This document shows, piece after piece, positions 1 to 6,255 of a DNA stretch of 6,255 nt (its first letter is position 1; each line of letters opens with the position of its first letter). The notes beneath the pieces are model-generated. The model was given only the letters and a program-made list of their open reading frames with translations. It did not search any database and was not told the DNA's origin. A program made the position numbers and the translations under genes. This stretch comes from a virus (Duplodnaviria; Heunggongvirae; Uroviricota; Caudoviricetes), in IMG/VR virus record IMGVR_UViG_2778261454_000001, one strand, 5' to 3'.

Positions 1-1286
<1,286 letters not shown>

Positions 1287-1294
1287 TAAATATC

Positions 1295-1322
1295 ATAGGG
1301 GATCGGTATGCCAATCCCCTAT
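1295..1322. promoter_or_regulatory. Stem-loop (9-bp stem ATAGGGGAT / ATCCCCTAT, 10-nt loop) between the fibre gene and the next ORF; overlaps palindrome CCTATATATAGG (1318..1329)
   Basis: Inverted repeat read directly from the sequence. No T-tract follows, so it is not a canonical intrinsic terminator. It lies just upstream of the AGGA ribosome-binding site of the 1339 ORF. Confidence 0.4.
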
Positions 1323-1338
1323 ATATAGGAATAATAAA

Positions 1339-1473
1339 ATGAATATCAAACAATCTACCAATTACAAATATAAAAGTACTGTAGTAAGTCCTACACGCAT
1401 TGTCATTACTCAAAAACATATTGAAGTATACGATTCAGAAGGGAAGCTAAGGGTACGTATGAATAAGGATTAA
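1339..1473 (+). CDS. Small protein (44 aa) whose C-terminus repeats the fibre C-terminal motif
   Basis: ATG 1339 is preceded by AGGA (1327-1330) at 8-nt spacing. C-terminus RIVITQKHIEVYDSEGKLRVRMNKD parallels the fibre C-terminus [25 protein letters not shown]. The longer ORF in the track (1243..) overlaps the fibre gene, so the internal ATG is preferred. Confidence 0.5.
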   Translation: MNIKQSTNYKYKSTVVSPTRIVITQKHIEVYDSEGKLRVRMNKD

Positions 1474-1475
1474 CT

Positions 1476-1775
1476 ATGGCACAAGGTTTACAATGCTGGA
1501 ATGGTTCCGGCGTACTTGTTGTAGATCTCACAGATTACAATATACGTTATATGGGTACATATAATATCAACGTATCTTCAAGTACTGCTACATATACCGT
1601 TACAGTACCAAATATGAAAACTACAGGATGGTTCGTACATTACGCCCCAGCGTCAGATAATTTTAATGATTGGTCTGCTTACTGTAACAATGGATCTTTC
1701 ACAGCTATCTATCTACCTGGCAATTTCCCCCCCGCTGGTACAGTTGCCTTTAACGTATATAAATGGGCGGCTTAA
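1476..1775 (+). CDS. Tail-fibre-associated small protein (99 aa), putative adhesin or assembly factor
   Basis: AAGGA (1465-1469) sits 6 nt upstream of ATG 1476, which lies 2 nt after the preceding stop. N-terminus MAQGLQCWNGSGVLVVDLTD resembles the start of the next protein and the fibre C-terminal motif. Rich in Y/W/N/G/T with 2 Cys. Confidence 0.55.
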   Translation: MAQGLQCWNGSGVLVVDLTDYNIRYMGTYNINVSSSTATYTVTVPNMKTTGWFVHYAPASDNFNDWSAYCNNGSFTAIYLPGNFPPAGTVAFNVYKWAA

Positions 1776-1776
1776 T

Positions 1777-2433
1777 ATGTCAGGTTTTGAAGTTTATAAT
1801 TCAGCAGGTGCTTTAACCATAGATAGTACTAACAAATCAATTATGACTGGTGGTGTAAAAGCTATGGGTACATTAACTGATCAAGGCTACTACACTGGTA
1901 TTACTTGTGCCTTTGGTAATGGTGGTGCTCTTGGTTTCTTGAATAGTAATGTAATTGTTAATAGAAACACTACCCAATATTGGTTTCAATTACAAACAGA
2001 TGGTGCCTGGTGTTTTCCTGGTGCTTATCTCTTTATGCCTAATTCTGGTCGATTCATAACAAGCACACATACAGCTACGCCTACTTCTGGTTATCTGGAT
2101 GTATTCAATGCTTCCGGTACTCTTATATGGTCTGCTGCTAGTGCTGCTACTATGCCCCGTATAGTTGGGTTCTTATCGGCTGGTGCTGGCGTAGATCTAT
2201 CTAGTGTAGTTACGGTTACTTCTCCGGTTGCTAATCCGTGGTTTTGTTGGTCACAGTGTCCGGGTAACGTTTCTGATGATGGGACAGTACTAGGTTATTC
2301 AGGGATAGTAATCAAACGTAATTCCAGTACTTCATTTAGTTTTCAGTACATTAATAAACTACAAAGATCATATACTCAGGCAATGGGTAATAATGGTATT
2401 CAGATTGCTTTGGCAACTTTTACCGGATACTAA
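1777..2433 (+). CDS. Putative receptor-binding adhesin / tail-fibre tip or assembly protein (218 aa)
   Basis: ATG 1777 lies 1 nt after the stop at 1773-1775; the track ORF 1666..2433 overlaps the previous gene, so the internal Met is preferred. N-terminus MSGFEVYNSAGALTIDST, with the motif repeated internally (GYLDVFNASGTLIW). Gly/aromatic/Cys-rich composition (…GITCAFGNGG…GAWCFPGAY…NPWFCWSQCPGN…). Confidence 0.6.
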   Translation: MSGFEVYNSAGALTIDSTNKSIMTGGVKAMGTLTDQGYYTGITCAFGNGGALGFLNSNVIVNRNTTQYWFQLQTDGAWCFPGAYLFMPNSGRFITSTHTATPTSGYLDVFNASGTLIWSAASAATMPRIVGFLSAGAGVDLSSVVTVTSPVANPWFCWSQCPGNVSDDGTVLGYSGIVIKRNSSTSFSFQYINKLQRSYTQAMGNNGIQIALATFTGY

Positions 2434-2434
2434 G

Positions 2435-2442
2435 TATAAATA
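2435..2442 (+). promoter_or_regulatory. TATAAATA motif (T4-type late-promoter consensus) about 32 nt upstream of ATG 2474
   Basis: Exact octamer in the 40-bp gap between 2433 and 2474. A single occurrence could arise by chance in AT-rich DNA. Confidence 0.25.
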
Positions 2443-2473
2443 ACTACATAATAACAACAAGGAATAAACACTA

Positions 2474-2746
2474 ATGGATATTGGTACTATTTTGGCACTT
2501 GTTATTTCTGGTTGTGTATTTGTATATACCATATTTCGTGATAATACAAAAGATACAGATGATCTACTTACTCGTGTTAGTGAAATTGAGACTAAACAGG
2601 CAGTACAGGAATCAAGTATTACTCGTATTGAAACGGATCAAGATAAAATGAGAGATTCACTATCTAAACTAGAAGCACAGATCCATGATTTAGATGTTAA
2701 GATTGAAAAGATTATTACTATTCTTGAACAGAAGCAGAAACAATAA
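2474..2746 (+). CDS. Small membrane-anchored coiled-coil protein (90 aa); candidate lysis accessory (holin / antiholin / i-spanin-like)
   Basis: AAGGA (2459-2463) upstream of the ATG. N-terminal hydrophobic helix IGTILALVISGCVFVYTIF, then a charged heptad-like segment. Convergent with the endolysin and ended by the intrinsic terminator. Confidence 0.6.
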   Translation: MDIGTILALVISGCVFVYTIFRDNTKDTDDLLTRVSEIETKQAVQESSITRIETDQDKMRDSLSKLEAQIHDLDVKIEKIITILEQKQKQ

Positions 2747-2750
2747 GCGA

Positions 2751-2792
2751 AAAAAGGCAAGCTACTGATATAGTAGCTTGCCTTTTGTTTTA
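2751..2792. terminator. Bidirectional rho-independent terminator between convergent genes
   Basis: Perfect 11-bp stem GGCAAGCTACT / AGTAGCTTGCC (2756-2766 / 2772-2782) with 5-nt loop, flanked by AAAAA on one side and TTTTGTTTT on the other, so it is followed by a U-tract on either strand. Confidence 0.8.
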
Positions 2793-3239
2793 TTTGTTAG
2801 TTAATGCGGCAATCATTTGATCTACGCGGTTTGGGGTTTGTTTGTACCAATGGGAATCTTTAGCTTGTTTAATTGCTTCAGGATAGTTCTTTTCCTTAAG
2901 TGCTTTTAACATCTTCTTAAACTTCATAGTACCAGCTAAGCCTAATTGGAAAATCATAATTACCATAAAGTCACGCCAATCATTAGGAAGCCAGATATCA
3001 AGAGTATCTAGGTTATGTTGTGCGATCATTATGTCATGGTCTAATAGTTCTTCTGCCTGTACCTCAGTAATACCGTTTGGATAACTTTCACCATGTGTAA
3101 TTAGATGACCATAACCAATCGTTTGATACCCTAATGAATCAGCATATGGATAAAACCTATCATTTCGATAGTACTTCAATGTTGCTTGATACTCTTTAGT
3201 ACCTTCATATTGTTTTAATCTTGTCTTTAAATCACTCAT
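2790..3239 (-). CDS. Endolysin, T4-lysozyme-like (glycoside hydrolase family 24 muramidase)
   Basis: From the internal ATG (rc of 3237-3239) the protein aligns by eye to T4 lysozyme: QYEG…ADSLGYQTIGYGH (Glu/Asp/Thr catalytic positions conserved), MIFQLGLAGTMKF, and HWYKQTPNR versus T4 SRWYNQTPNR. The track ORF starts 20 codons upstream at a GTG, which I consider less likely. No signal peptide or SAR segment, so it should need a holin. Confidence 0.85.
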   Translation of the reverse strand: MSDLKTRLKQYEGTKEYQATLKYYRNDRFYPYADSLGYQTIGYGHLITHGESYPNGITEVQAEELLDHDIMIAQHNLDTLDIWLPNDWRDFMVIMIFQLGLAGTMKFKKMLKALKEKNYPEAIKQAKDSHWYKQTPNRVDQMIAALTNK

Positions 3240-3242
3240 TAA

Positions 3243-3276
3243 TAAATACCTATAGTTAATTTTATATAGGTATTTA
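3243..3276. promoter_or_regulatory. Perfect 12-bp inverted repeat TAAATACCTATA / TATAGGTATTTA with 10-bp spacer, filling the divergent intergenic region
   Basis: Read directly. Each arm ends 3 nt from a start codon (minus ATG at 3237-3239, plus ATG at 3280-3282), so both genes have nearly identical leaders (TATAGGTATTTA-YTW-ATG). Confidence 0.5.
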
Positions 3277-3279
3277 CTT

Positions 3280-3726
3280 ATGGATATACAGATCCCCACG
3301 GAATGGGAATATACAGAAGATTGGGATAAGCGTACTTTGACTAATGGTGATTACGTAGGGTTTGTTTATCTGTTTCAATTTGAGGATGGTAGTACATACA
3401 TCGGTTCAAAACAGATGTATAAACGTGTTAAAGAGATTAAGAAACTTAAACCTACTTCAGAAAGTAACAATTGGGAAAACTATACAAGTAGTTCAAAGAT
3501 AGTTAATCAAAAGATCACAGATGGTGAAAAGTACTGTAAAACTATTCTCTATGCGTTTCCAACTATGCGTGAAACATTACTAGTAGAATCAATTTTGATA
3601 CTACATGAAATGTTGAAACCCAATTGTTTAAATCTCGCAATGATGACGAAGATCAGATCACCAAATGCTAAAGATAAAAAACATCTTTTAGGCATAGTAC
3701 AAGAGCTATTGGAAATATTGAGGTAA
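3280..3726 (+). CDS. GIY-YIG-type nuclease (148 aa): free-standing homing-endonuclease-like or Endo II-like
   Basis: Motifs in GIY-YIG order and spacing: GFVYLF (GIY-like), 8 aa, STYIGSK (YIG), then a conserved Arg (YKRVKE) and later Glu/Asn (LLVESILI…PNCLN). Short, with no obvious extra DNA-binding domain. Confidence 0.55.
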   Translation: MDIQIPTEWEYTEDWDKRTLTNGDYVGFVYLFQFEDGSTYIGSKQMYKRVKEIKKLKPTSESNNWENYTSSSKIVNQKITDGEKYCKTILYAFPTMRETLLVESILILHEMLKPNCLNLAMMTKIRSPNAKDKKHLLGIVQELLEILR

Positions 3727-3730
3727 ATAC

Positions 3731-4309
3731 ATGGCAAGCAGAATAAACGGGATTAGTAGTACTCAGAGTTATATAAAAACTGAAGGTACTAAACTGGGTA
3801 AACTTTTTAATGATGAAATAATTAAACGCTCAAGGCTACTATCCCAAAAAGTACAAGCAGATTTAAATAACTCAGTAGATCGCGGGGCGGTTCCCTTCAC
3901 TCAGAGATCAGTACTGTTTTTTTATAAAAAGAATGGCAAGCAATCAGTAACAGCTACCATTATGATTAAAAATATTCAAGCACAGTATCTATACAATATC
4001 ATTGTTGAACAAAAAACGATTGATAAATTTGTACCTACTAGTATTGCTCGTTTGGATAAGTATGGAAATATTTCAGGATTACGAAAAGGTTTATCAAGTG
4101 GGAAGTACAAGATAGTTAAATCTAAGAATGGTAAAGAACGTTTAATTGATACTACTAAGAAAGATACTAAGAAGAAAACCAAACGTGTAGTTGGTCTAAG
4201 AGAAGAGAAACGCCGTAAGATTATCTATGACTTCTATGGGGAAGTAGATAAAGGTGTAAGAGTAGTAATGAGTGGTATTGAAGGTACATTTAGGATTAGA
4301 AAGAAATGA
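3731..4309 (+). CDS. Hypothetical protein (192 aa) with a strongly basic C-terminal region
   Basis: GAGG (3720-3723) lies 7 nt upstream of ATG 3731. Long ORF with a Lys/Arg-rich C-terminal third (…KSKNGKERLIDTTKKDTKKKTKRVVGLREEKRRK…). Its stop overlaps the next start (ATGA). No family recognised. Confidence 0.6.
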   Translation: MASRINGISSTQSYIKTEGTKLGKLFNDEIIKRSRLLSQKVQADLNNSVDRGAVPFTQRSVLFFYKKNGKQSVTATIMIKNIQAQYLYNIIVEQKTIDKFVPTSIARLDKYGNISGLRKGLSSGKYKIVKSKNGKERLIDTTKKDTKKKTKRVVGLREEKRRKIIYDFYGEVDKGVRVVMSGIEGTFRIRKK

Positions 4310-4617
4310 ATTTTGAACAACATTATGAAGAATTAACAAGTGAAATTAAATTAGGTGGTGTAACACCTAATGGTAATTCAATGCCAATTAATAAAATGTT
4401 TCTTGGTAAAAAGTTTCAAAAGATCATCAAGAATAGTACTCACAATGTGGATAGTTATATGAATGTGATCTTTGAAAAAAAGCAAACCTTTAAAGATGGT
4501 GAAGTACTTGAATGGGAACTACAGGGTGAAGTATTACCCGTGTTTGTAATTGAGTATAAAAAGCTATTCGTAAAAGGTAAACACTTTCATGTATACGCAG
4601 TGGGGATTATTGAATGA
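4306..4617 (+). CDS. Hypothetical protein (103 aa)
   Basis: ATGA overlap with both the upstream and downstream genes, indicating translational coupling. No recognisable motif. Confidence 0.5.
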   Translation: MNFEQHYEELTSEIKLGGVTPNGNSMPINKMFLGKKFQKIIKNSTHNVDSYMNVIFEKKQTFKDGEVLEWELQGEVLPVFVIEYKKLFVKGKHFHVYAVGIIE

Positions 4618-4907
4618 TAGGTGTAATACTAGAACTGCTATCTAAAGGAATGGACTTCTTTATCAAGAGAAAAACCATTCAAGCAGATGTAGAAAAAACA
4701 AATGCCGAAGGGCAAATAGAAACCAACAAAGAAGAGATTGAAAAGGTATCATTCCATTGGCGTAATGCTCTTGGATTTGTGATCACCCTAATCATCCTCT
4801 ATAACTGGATCATAGTACCAGTACTGGATGCTTTTGGTATTGTGGTTATCCAAGTACCATTAGGACAACTACTGCAAGTACTTCTAATCATGGTTGGTGG
4901 TTCATAA
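4614..4907 (+). CDS. Putative holin (97 aa, 2-3 TM; resembles the 3TM GTA-type holin family)
   Basis: GGGGA (4602-4606) lies 7 nt upstream. Hydrophilic N-terminal part then two clear hydrophobic helices (ALGFVITLIILYNWIIVPVL and FGIVVIQVPLGQLLQVLLIMVGG). The HWRNALGF…LYNWIIVP segment matches my recollection of the W-R-P…G-W…Y-N-F signature of that family; not verified. Confidence 0.55.
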   Translation: MIGVILELLSKGMDFFIKRKTIQADVEKTNAEGQIETNKEEIEKVSFHWRNALGFVITLIILYNWIIVPVLDAFGIVVIQVPLGQLLQVLLIMVGGS

Positions 4908-4934
4908 AAAAAGCCCCATTACGGGGCTTTTTTT
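4906..4934. terminator. Bidirectional rho-independent terminator
   Basis: Stem AGCCCC / GGGGCT (4912-4917 / 4923-4928) with 5-nt loop, flanked by an A6 run and a T7 run. It lies between the stop at 4905-4907 (plus) and the stop at 4936-4938 (minus). Confidence 0.8.
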
Positions 4935-4935
4935 G

Positions 4936-6048
4936 TCAGAGATTAAATTCACTAAAGAGCCAATGTTGTTTGCTTAGTGGAATTACAAAGTTTGTCCCTT
5001 TAGGATCTCTACTACGATTTGGTGTTATAATTCTATCAAATGTCGCGTGATATATAGTATCCATTTTTATTCCTTTGTACAGTAATCCATGTACATATCT
5101 ATTCAAAAATCCAGCTATAATATCTGCTATTTGTATACCAGTACTATCTTTAGAATCTTTGAATATCAATTTTGGGGTTTCAATAACTTTGAAATCACAT
5201 GTAGGGATTTTTGGCATAATATCTACATTGACTGTTTTTATCTCAGAGATACAAAAGTCTAATGTGCTAGCAAATTCGCTAGAGGTATCATGTGTTAATA
5301 CGATGTCGGATAGTTTTCTTTTATGAATTTTATTGAGGCGAGCAATCTGGTTATAGAAACTATGTACGTTAGGCAGTAGTTTTATAACATTTCCATTACT
5401 ATCTAAATCTGGAATAGGTACAAACCATTTAATAGCTACATCTGCTGAGTATCTACTTTTTCTGTATTCAAATTCTTGTAAAGTTTTATCGAACATTCTG
5501 CATGTGCCGCCATTATCATCTAGTGGATTACTTTCACTAGAAAAGAATTCTTTCAGGCTCTCAATACATATGTTCAACTTTTCTTCGGATGGGTCTTTAC
5601 ATAACTCAGAGAATGTAGTGAAACAAATTTCTGGTGCAAATGTACTTATTATGTCTACCAATATGTTTCTTACTAACAGCAATTCATTGCTGTCTTCATT
5701 CTCCATTGCAGGTACTATAAGTTGATTTACTATAGAAACTGCTACGTTACACTTTTTATCCATTACTTCACATACTAAAGTGTATTTTTCATCAATTACG
5801 AAATCAACTAATTCGTATACTAGTTCTGGATTTTTAATATAATAATCTTGGGATTTCAGTTCAATTGATTCATCTATGCCGTGTCTTTTCTTCAAGGCAC
5901 GTACAAAACCTTTCATTCTACTAATTTTCCCTTCTGCTACTCCCACGCATGAATGAGTGAAAAGGGGCTGATTAGCAAATCCCATGTCATTTTTTTTATT
6001 AATCAAATCACCTGTGTTACCACTTTCATCTAAGAAATATTCCATCAT
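4936..6048 (-). CDS. DUF3800-like protein (about 370 aa), possible RNase-H-like-fold enzyme
   Basis: N-terminal MMEYFLDESGNTGD and C-terminal GIQIADIIAGFLNR match the DESG and Q-x-A-D signatures I recall for DUF3800. The track ORF begins at a TTG (6058-6060); I place the start at ATG rc(6046-6048), with GGGA about 9 nt upstream on the minus strand. Confidence 0.65.
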   Translation of the reverse strand: MMEYFLDESGNTGDLINKKNDMGFANQPLFTHSCVGVAEGKISRMKGFVRALKKRHGIDESIELKSQDYYIKNPELVYELVDFVIDEKYTLVCEVMDKKCNVAVSIVNQLIVPAMENEDSNELLLVRNILVDIISTFAPEICFTTFSELCKDPSEEKLNICIESLKEFFSSESNPLDDNGGTCRMFDKTLQEFEYRKSRYSADVAIKWFVPIPDLDSNGNVIKLLPNVHSFYNQIARLNKIHKRKLSDIVLTHDTSSEFASTLDFCISEIKTVNVDIMPKIPTCDFKVIETPKLIFKDSKDSTGIQIADIIAGFLNRYVHGLLYKGIKMDTIYHATFDRIITPNRSRDPKGTNFVIPLSKQHWLFSEFNL

Positions 6049-6243
6049 TACCAATCCCAATCTACAGTAGTGTCCAATCCTCTCAGATTCGTATGTTCAG
6101 TACGTGTAGCCTGTAGAACGGTTTCACCAGTGGCGATAGAAACTATATCAAATGACTCTATTTCAGTTTGTCCAAGAGTGATCTTACCCAGCAATAGTGG
6201 ACACGCGGCTAAGTGAGTAAACTCTCAGTCAGAGGTGACTCAC

Positions 6244-6255
6244 ATGACAAAAACA
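6244..6255 (+). CDS. Start of a plus-strand gene running off the window (MTKT…)
   Basis: ATG 6244 is preceded by AGAGGTGA (6231-6238) at typical Shine-Dalgarno spacing. Only 4 codons are visible. Confidence 0.3.

Follow-up and report, generated by a model that had tools for sequence, protein, structure and literature searches.

Lysis of Gram-negative hosts by phages ordinarily depends on a holin, an endolysin and a spanin. The stretch of DNA analysed here, 6,255 nucleotides of a tailed phage (Caudoviricetes; IMG/VR virus record IMGVR_UViG_2778261454_000001) that will be called the window, carries at positions 2474-4907 a lysis module of a different composition: a holin candidate of the gene transfer agent (GTA) type, a soluble lysozyme encoded on the opposite strand, a releasin-like protein found outside the Mu-like phages and an embedded GIY-YIG gene, with no recognisable spanin. 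Each of these parts belongs to a known kind, and it is the combination that is new. Our overall reading, at a probability of roughly 0.65, is that the protein p97 is the holin, a soluble GH24 lysozyme the endolysin and the protein p90 a DUF2730-like accessory, and that these make up the sole lysis cassette of a temperate phage of ~35 kb. The three genes at issue are as follows.

2474-2746, plus strand: p90, 90 amino acids (aa), an N-terminal transmembrane (TM) segment and an acidic coiled coil, DUF2730-like (hydropathy, hhalign)
2790-3239, minus strand: GH24 (T4-type) lysozyme, 149 aa, the endolysin, monocistronic (PF00959)
4614-4907, plus strand: p97, 97 aa, PF11351 holin candidate (PF11351, phrog_3427)

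Described lysis systems and how the locus compares

On the holin side the system to consider is RcGTA, in which the locus rcc00555-rcc00556 is needed for lysis and release (PMC5026251). The likeness runs through the family PF11351, where p97 scores above the cut-off and a profile made from its relatives reaches strong members. These members share with p97 a linker of the form GQ[IM]E.NKxE...WR and, by eye, an amphipathic helix and a two-TM hairpin, and p97 is likewise paired with a soluble endolysin; the family itself was presumably modelled on the RcGTA holin rcc00556. The gene order differs from that of RcGTA in that three other genes lie between p97 and the endolysin gene, which is on the opposite strand.

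The counterpart of p90 is the 'releasin' of phage Mu, gp25, a membrane-tethered cytoplasmic protein of 99 aa with N-out/C-in topology that is needed to free the signal-anchor-release (SAR) endolysin of Mu; it does not act as a holin and on its own brings about no lysis (PMC9239132). Among isolates, proteins of its family, DUF2730, have been reported in Mu-like phages only (Chamblee et al. 2022, PMC9239132). Other Mu-like phages pair them with cytoplasmic endolysins, just 2 of the 9 endolysin families so paired having a SAR segment, and what DUF2730 does in those phages is an open question (PMC9239132). p90 resembles gp25 in size (90 versus 99 aa), in its N-terminal TM segment with few residues outside, in its acidic cytoplasmic helical domain and in its location within a lysis cluster. 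The differences are nonetheless several. The phage that encodes p90 is not transposable: it has a serine recombinase and a gpA-type terminase and integrates site-specifically in ybhA, as seen in a complete relative (L003). The partner endolysin lacks a SAR domain; a holin candidate is present, where Mu has none; and there is no spanin, where Mu has gp23/gp23.1. Finally, the p90 gene lies 3' of the endolysin gene and convergent to it, and upstream of it in lineages where the two are co-directional, whereas the Mu gene is downstream in the same operon.

With lambda-type S-R-Rz/Rz1 cassettes the module has in common a holin, a soluble endolysin of the muramidase type and late expression. It departs from them in that its genes are not arranged in a single uninterrupted run in one direction, the holin is of a different family, the GIY-YIG, p192 and p103 genes are interleaved, and neither Rz/Rz1 nor a u-spanin is present. 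A further parallel is the lambda-like Shewanella prophage LambdaSo, where an extra small TM protein, Lcc6, acts at the holin step (bioRxiv 10.1101/2024.01.23.576932). Lcc6 is only 65 aa and has no similarity to DUF2730, and LambdaSo, unlike the present phage, has a pinholin, a SAR endolysin and nested spanins.

p97, a holin-family protein

p97 scores 25.0 bits against PF11351 ('Holin of 3TMs, for gene-transfer release'; cut-off 24.8), two other copies (L001 and L002) score 24.9 and 28.8 bits, and the protein matches phrog_3427 'holin'; relatives are named '3TM-type holin' at NCBI. An earlier note, made from the sequence of the window alone, had taken this 2-3-TM protein at the end of the 3280-4907 operon as one holin candidate, and comparison with the holin families bears that out. 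Because the direct PF11351 score is borderline, a p97-family profile was searched against 1.84 billion representative proteins. The matches came to only 24 representative clusters; p97 is a compact 97-aa subfamily confined to enterobacterial prophages. Among the 24 are three remote proteins, P0316, P0319 and P0320 (E=5e-5 to 3e-4), whose PF11351 scores are 71.9, 66.5 and 30.3 bits, respectively. All three have in common with p97 the linker motif GQ[IM]E[VT]NKxE...WR and, judged by eye, an amphipathic helix plus two TM segments, the likeness extending to the N-terminus; P0316 has in addition a charged C-terminal tail that p97 lacks. Relatives of P0319 are carried by 52 isolated phages, many of them annotated as holin, and in Paracoccus phage ParKuw1 such a gene follows the endolysin gene directly.

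Hydropathy places two strong hydrophobic segments in p97, at residues 52-71 and 73-96. Residues 1-18 form an amphipathic helix (hydrophobic moment, muH, 0.49) that contains E7, K11 and D14 and no clear TM segment, and a charged linker with the motif GQIETNKEE...WR follows. The second TM segment has an invariant polar face made of Q80, P82, G84, Q85 and Q88. An AlphaFold2 model of the protein was of low confidence (predicted local distance difference test, pLDDT, 59) and uninformative. Related modules were collected as 65 IMG/VR contigs retrieved with p97 as bait, in which the other genes were then sought by tblastn. Within this sample p97 is the best-conserved gene of the module, with a mean identity of 79% to the window copy, a figure biased by the use of p97 as bait for most of the loci. 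Searches against NCBIfam gave nothing useful for p97, p90, p148, p192 or p103. On this evidence p97 is a PF11351-family holin candidate and likely the holin of the phage, and it is p97 that would form the hole.

p90, a releasin-like protein

The single TM segment of p90 spans residues 3-21 (mean Kyte-Doolittle hydropathy, KD, 2.31) and is followed by an acidic, heptad-patterned domain with a net charge of -4, so the earlier description of a 90-aa, single-TM coiled-coil protein convergent with the endolysin holds. By BLASTP p90 is collinear with Mu gp25 over its full length (28% identity, E=3e-5). Mu gp25 is a member of phrog_736, and three diverged p90 relatives match that group at E ~3e-4 each; precomputed tables list PF10805 (DUF2730) as a 'weak' match for p90. 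A Pfam scan of 23 p90 relatives returned mostly generic coiled-coil families, and hhalign with the 23-sequence alignment against Mu gp25 alone gave a probability of 5%.

Since the Pfam matches and the single-sequence hhalign comparisons (see below) were weak, deeper alignments were built for a profile-profile test. The p90 family was represented by 54 sequences from the loci, and DUF2730 by five: those of Mu, Pseudoalteromonas HS6, Pasteurella AFS-2018a, a Mu-like insert in an Stx phage and Klebsiella Kp4866-3. The two alignments match at 95.3% probability (E=2.4e-8, score 47). As controls, a reversed alignment scored 21.9, 25 column shuffles in which the soluble part was shuffled and the TM segment kept scored at most 28.3, and the Mu i-spanin gp23 against the p90 family reached a score of 12.0 and a probability of 0.3%.

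The distribution of charges points the same way. In 49 of 50 unique p90 variants there is no lysine or arginine before the TM segment and there are one to three within the 10 residues after it, from which an N-out/C-in topology is predicted, with the acidic coiled coil of ~70 residues in the cytoplasm. This is the pattern of gp25 and the opposite of that of an i-spanin. A comparison of the 2474-2746 product with holin and spanin families, as proposed in the earlier note, yields weak spanin-type PHROG matches; the best-supported relationship is to DUF2730. p90 is probably a distant relative of the DUF2730 proteins that works as they do, and its role would be that of an accessory.

In Pseudoalteromonas phage HS6 (L092), the DUF2730 gene of which was related to Mu gp25 by tblastn, the annotated lysis cluster runs in the order endolysin, two hypothetical proteins, 'holin', DksA-like protein, DUF2730 protein. 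Going by that annotation, an isolated phage already combines a holin with a DUF2730 protein.

The endolysin

The lysozyme belongs to PF00959 (43.7 bits, cut-off 22.3) and matches PHROG lysozyme families. Its open reading frame (ORF) is listed as 2790-3299 with a GTG start at 3299; the length of its relatives (149-150 aa) and family conservation beginning at the ATG at 3239 indicate that the latter is the true start, which gives a predicted protein of 149 aa. In 65 unique relatives conservation reaches 60% or more for YEG, DSLG and TIGYGH, and 90% or more for the Glu, Asp and Thr within them; we take the YEG...DSLG...TIGYGH motif to align with the Glu/Asp/Thr catalytic triad of T4 lysozyme. The best 19-residue hydropathy window has a KD of just 1.11, and there is no hydrophobic N-terminus, signal or SAR segment. 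The earlier view that this endolysin has no secretion signal is therefore upheld, and the data support a cytoplasmic enzyme for which a membrane lesion is needed for access to the wall.

With the NCBIfam model for BgtA, the GTA endolysin of Bartonella, the lysozyme gives a weak match, of 29 bits where the cut-off is 315.

Spanins and other lysis genes

A lipobox scan of all six frames, which recovered Mu gp23.1 as a positive control, found no o-spanin candidate in the window, as the earlier note had remarked, and none in the uninterrupted prophage L004. The single match in L003 lies in a low-complexity ORF of 32 codons and was judged spurious. An ISGC pseudo-lipobox inside the TM segment of p90 was set aside because the n-region is not basic and relatives have C, L, I or G at the position of the Cys. 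Also rejected was an ORF at 2481-2651, embedded in the p90 gene in the manner of Rz1: its frame is closed in most relatives, with a median of 29 stop-free codons.

Among the 35 annotated genes of L003, small TM proteins are limited to the p97 and p90 homologues and two cargo proteins, and no second lysozyme is annotated. The left half of the prophage was scanned in 40 loci, namely the contig 3300029522_000206 (L131 plus L017) and 39 others, and in these there is no conserved lipoprotein and no additional conserved TM protein. A 208-aa TM protein without a PHROG match occurs in 16 of the 40. A 153-aa protein with five TM segments encoded upstream of the terminase (L131 5062-5523) was considered as a second holin and rejected, being present in 5 of the 40 loci and matching no PHROG. 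Neither a second conserved holin (the earlier note had raised the prospect of a canonical one elsewhere in the genome) nor a lipoprotein o-spanin nor an Rz-like i-spanin was found elsewhere in the related phages scanned.

Organisation of the module

The coordinates of all ORFs were verified against a six-frame ORF list. Beyond the three genes given above, the window contains the following features.

315-1286, plus strand: tail-tip fibre gene, C-terminal fragment (PF09327)
1476-1775 and 1774-2433, plus strand: two accessory genes (six-frame ORF list and family searches)
2752-2786, both strands: bidirectional intrinsic terminator separating the stop codons of p90 and the lysozyme
3237-3282, no strand: palindrome in the divergent intergenic region (inverted-repeat search, RNA folding)
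3280-3726, plus strand: p148, GIY-YIG protein (SegE-like), first gene of the holin operon (PF19835)
3731-4309, plus strand: p192, very basic protein (charge computation)
4306-4617, plus strand: p103, soluble protein (ORF list)
4906-4934, both strands: bidirectional terminator-like hairpin between the holin stop and the convergent DUF3800 gene
4936-6060, minus strand: DUF3800 gene (six-frame ORF list and family searches)

The genes fall into three units: p90, which closes a rightward string of tail-fibre genes; the lysozyme gene, single and convergent to it; and the divergent operon p148-p192-p103-p97, in which the p103 reading frame overlaps the gene before it at its start codon and the gene after it at its stop codon. 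A bidirectional terminator hairpin stands on either side of the lysis region: one separates p90 from the lysozyme gene, the other p97 from the DUF3800 gene. The first (2752-2786) has a G+C-containing stem of 15-16 bp with an A-run on its left and a T-run on its right, folds as RNA at -24.6 and -22.4 kcal/mol on the two strands (z ~ -6), and has equivalents in L001 and L002. The sequences of the second (4906-4934) are AAAAAAAGCCCC / GGGGCTTTTTTT.

Between the divergent start codons of the lysozyme and p148 genes, which are 40 bp apart, lies a palindrome with arms at 3237-3254 and 3265-3282 and a perfect core at 3244-3254 and 3265-3275. The start codons and the Shine-Dalgarno-like AGG triplets of both genes fall within it, and the hairpin it gives as RNA has an energy of -13.7 kcal/mol on one strand and -15.4 on the other (z -4.3 and -5.7). 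The palindrome is kept across the family, where changes in the arms are partly compensatory and the best inverted repeat has on average 11.1 matches, versus 6.4 in shuffles. Such an element may link the endolysin gene and the holin operon in their expression, by serving as an operator or by forming a hairpin that sequesters the Shine-Dalgarno sequences.

The gene set recurs widely. By tblastn the 65 contigs contain lysozyme in 61, p148 in 61, p192 in 62 and p103 in 38, with more divergent counterparts of p103 at the same position in further loci, and five extra contigs retrieved with the lysozyme also carry the set. Identities range from ~35% to 100%, and catalytic and TM residues are conserved across the module families. 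The identification of 2474-4907 as the lysis module of the phage, already made in the earlier note, is supported. Gene order is less constant. Four loci (L029, L039, L052 and L064) have p192-p103 immediately after the tail fibre gene and then p148 followed directly by p97, the order of ORFs in L052 being p90, lysozyme (reversed), p148, p97. The p148 gene is always next to the lysozyme gene, and the p90 gene adjoins the lysozyme gene in every lineage that has p90. The core of the module is thus p90, lysozyme, p148 and p97, and p192-p103 is separable from it.

In most loci the lysozyme gene is on the opposite strand. In seven (L065, L075 and L084-L088) it shares the strand of the other genes, and in L075 and L084 the ORFs run along one strand in the order p90-like, lysozyme, p148, p192, p103, p97-like. 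Given these co-directional versions, the 'split' layout is a lineage-specific inversion of the lysozyme gene; no inverted repeats that could account for the inversion were found flanking that gene. The earlier notion of a split module is not supported in the form it was given: the lysozyme gene of the window does lie on the opposite strand, but the genes make up one module, which is co-directional in other lineages. Similarly, the holin candidate is indeed in an operon on the other strand, but that operon is not really remote, its first start codon being the one 40 bp from that of the lysozyme.

p148, p192 and p103

p148 scores 58.4 bits against PF19835 (cut-off 25) and is matched by the PADLOC model 'HEase' at E=7e-8. 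Residues conserved at 90% or more include the tyrosine in FVY, the tyrosine and glycine in YIG and a downstream E and N, which we assign to positions of the GIY-YIG motif; the usual Arg after YIG is not conserved, and a K stands in its place. The protein is 148 aa long and has no DNA-binding domain. By these sequence features it is a bona fide GIY-YIG-domain protein, and membership among the homing endonucleases is not implied. Its conservation beside a lysozyme is unexpected for a domain of the homing-endonuclease type, and the protein is not known to have a role in lysis.

p192 has 44 lysines and arginines among its 192 residues and a net charge of +27. None of its 57 homologues has a Pfam domain, its AlphaFold2 model has a pLDDT of 63.6, and a Foldseek search against BFVD returned an unnamed viral protein and a weak 'tail component'. 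It also gives a weak PHROG match to a 'minor tail protein' (E=6e-4). Sequence searches of p192 and p148 against the PDB found nothing, and p103 has no family match in PHROG, Pfam or NCBIfam. The genes for p192 and p103 travel as a pair. A role in lysis for p192, p103 or p148 is possible but unsupported.

The prophage of origin

Both ends of the window are IS3: positions 1-122 belong to the right end of one copy and 6179-6255 to the left end of a second, which is oriented alike. The sequence between them (121-6178, ~6.06 kb) is 99.7-99.8% identical at the DNA level to uninterrupted prophages (L004-L008) in Enterobacteriaceae assemblies and metagenome contigs. The left IS3 cuts a tail-tip fibre gene of ~1100 aa, of which the last 323 codons are left (315-1286), and a similar truncation by IS3 occurs in E. 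coli G3/10. The complete relative L003 (E. coli MG48), more divergent and ~35 kb long, is inserted in ybhA, with the serine recombinase at one end, the lysis module at the other, the gpA-type terminase and no annotated transposase. Taken together, the IS3 ends, the uninterrupted relatives and the layout of L003 identify the window as a piece, with IS3 at either end, of a prophage that is integrated in ybhA, is not Mu-like and has its lysis genes intact.

This phage family is common in Enterobacter, Klebsiella and E. coli. Searched against 50,697 phage records by megablast and blastn, the window matched only at its IS3 ends and in short stretches of the lysozyme gene, and p97 and p90 found no match among the same records by tblastn.

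Several features of the surrounding genes were noted in passing. After the tail fibre gene, 1476-2433 (L004 9003-9960) encodes a 99-aa protein of phrog_7961 and a 218-aa protein of phrog_4524 (DUF8377); the two are confined to about 25 of the 65 relatives and probably serve as fibre accessories or in host range. In relatives, a 44-aa ORF (~1339-1473) is annotated as a gene. What lies between the holin gene and the prophage end varies among relatives, and the site looks like a moron or defence hot spot: in the window a DUF3800 protein (4936-6060, minus strand) with weak PADLOC matches to PDC-M04A and PDC-S51, in L011 a KAP NTPase, in L010 and L075 a 264-aa protein each, and in other relatives membrane proteins. 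The phage has something GTA-like about it: tail genes of L003 are annotated DUF2163 and DUF6950, DUF2163 being linked to the RcGTA tail genes, the family of the holin takes its name from GTA release, and the lysozyme has its weak match to BgtA.

A model for lysis and its alternatives

The scheme favoured here builds on what the comparisons establish, namely the family assignments, the architecture and the synteny, together with the absence of a lipoprotein o-spanin, an Rz-like i-spanin and a second conserved holin. The 149-aa GH24 lysozyme would fold and accumulate in the cytoplasm as p97 accumulates in the inner membrane, presumably as an N-in/C-in helical hairpin, and a lesion made by p97 would let the lysozyme reach the murein. 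Anchored by its N-out/C-in TM segment and with its acidic coiled coil facing the cytoplasm, p90 would be an inner-membrane accessory that may time or assist the triggering of the holin, or help the endolysin to escape.

A number of observations weigh against this scheme. The PF11351 score of the window p97 is just 0.2 bits over the threshold. The protein has two clear TM segments, not three, and ends right after the second, without the charged C-terminal tail usual for holins. The p90 family stays below the PF10805 cut-off of 24.9 bits, the best member (P0158) reaching 16.9, and p90 of the window has no local PF10805 match at E up to 1, when Mu gp25 itself scores 50.4 bits; with single sequences, hhalign of p90 against gp25 was weak, at 5% and 47% in two set-ups. 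p90 also matches the 'Rz-like spanin' PHROGs 7686 (E=5e-5) and 739 (E=4e-3), and proteins made of a TM segment plus a coiled coil are prone to spurious matches. Of 64 loci, 60 have a p90-like ORF; it is missing from L068, L069 and L071 and truncated in L045, all four of which retain lysozyme and p97, so p90 may be dispensable. A scan for sigma-70 promoters found 3 sites against 13.1 expected from shuffles, for which reason no promoter is claimed or placed. Lastly, the window copy sits in a prophage disrupted by IS3.

The main rival, which we regard as unlikely, is a two-component holin that strictly needs both p90 and p97, neither alone being 'the' holin. The two do co-occur in those 60 loci and are the small membrane proteins of the cassette, and the coiled coil of p90, acidic and cytoplasmic, might associate with the N-terminal domain of p97, which is long, charged and likewise cytoplasmic. 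Precedents for such an arrangement are XhlA with XhlB in PBSX and Lcc6 with the pinholin in Shewanella LambdaSo. LambdaSo is a case in which the holin step cannot do without an additional small TM protein (bioRxiv 10.1101/2024.01.23.576932). That said, the four loci in which p90 is absent or truncated and lysozyme and p97 are kept fit an accessory better than an essential holin. Weak Pfam matches to XhlA in 7 of 23 p90 family members fall far below threshold amid generic coiled-coil noise, and the TM segment of XhlA is C-terminal, the opposite of its position in p90.

Considerably less probable is that p90 is the true holin, a single-TM protein of a class III-like kind, with p97 as an antiholin, a depolariser of the pinholin type or a protein unrelated to lysis. 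Its gene adjoins that of the lysozyme in every lineage having p90 and in L065, L075 and L084-L088 lies directly upstream and co-directional, and single-TM holins exist, as in T4 T, which is N-in with a large periplasmic domain. Almost nothing of p90, given its predicted N-out/C-in topology, would lie in the periplasm, some lineages lack the protein, and direct assignment to a holin family belongs to p97. The best-supported relatives of p90 are the DUF2730 proteins, whose tested member, Mu gp25, is no holin and gives no lysis alone (PMC9239132). The earlier note had left it open which of the two membrane proteins is the holin; with their assignments to PF11351 and DUF2730 the two are not equivalent candidates. 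Its further suggestion that p90 might instead be an antiholin comes closest, among the alternatives it offered, to what the evidence suggests.

Equally improbable is that the window module is an inactive relic in a disrupted prophage or has been co-opted by the host. The IS3 copies at both ends, the cut tail-fibre gene and its parallel in E. coli G3/10 would suit a relic; the six genes are nevertheless intact and 99.7-99.8% identical to the copies in uninterrupted prophages, and the proposal concerns the state of one copy, not the nature of the module.

The least probable alternative, also raised in the earlier note, is that p90 is an i-spanin-like protein that spans the periplasm to an unrecognised outer-membrane partner, which would suit its TM-plus-coiled-coil layout, the weak matches to PHROGs 7686 and 739 and a phage otherwise without any spanin, but which is opposed by the topology predicted from the positive-inside rule in 49 of 50 variants, by the lack of a lipoprotein ORF embedded in, overlapping or near the p90 gene or of a lipoprotein conserved anywhere in the phage family, by the unconserved alternative frame (median 29 stop-free codons), by the 0.3% hhalign probability against the Mu i-spanin and by its 90 aa, fewer than the 128 of Mu gp23 or the ~150 of lambda Rz.

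Implications

For annotation, genes of the p97 type can be named PF11351-family holins, and those of the p90 type should be named neither spanin nor holin. This prophage family is frequent in clinical genomes of Enterobacter, Klebsiella and E. coli. It is also possible that p90, the lysozyme and the GIY-YIG gene constitute a cassette that moves or inverts as a unit.

A wider proposal, which we put forward tentatively and consider doubtful, is that DUF2730-type proteins are inner-membrane lysis factors of a broader kind, working beyond the Mu-like phages and also with a true holin and a soluble endolysin. The cassette, being native to E. coli, offers a compact setting for the question of what DUF2730 proteins do with cytoplasmic endolysins (PMC9239132). 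Were the broader role true in a family without spanins, it would imply an unrecognised route through the outer membrane, for which the candidates would be either p192, conserved and very basic, together with p103, or else p148, the GIY-YIG protein that is always linked. The cassette is also a place to seek a non-spanin route through the outer membrane.

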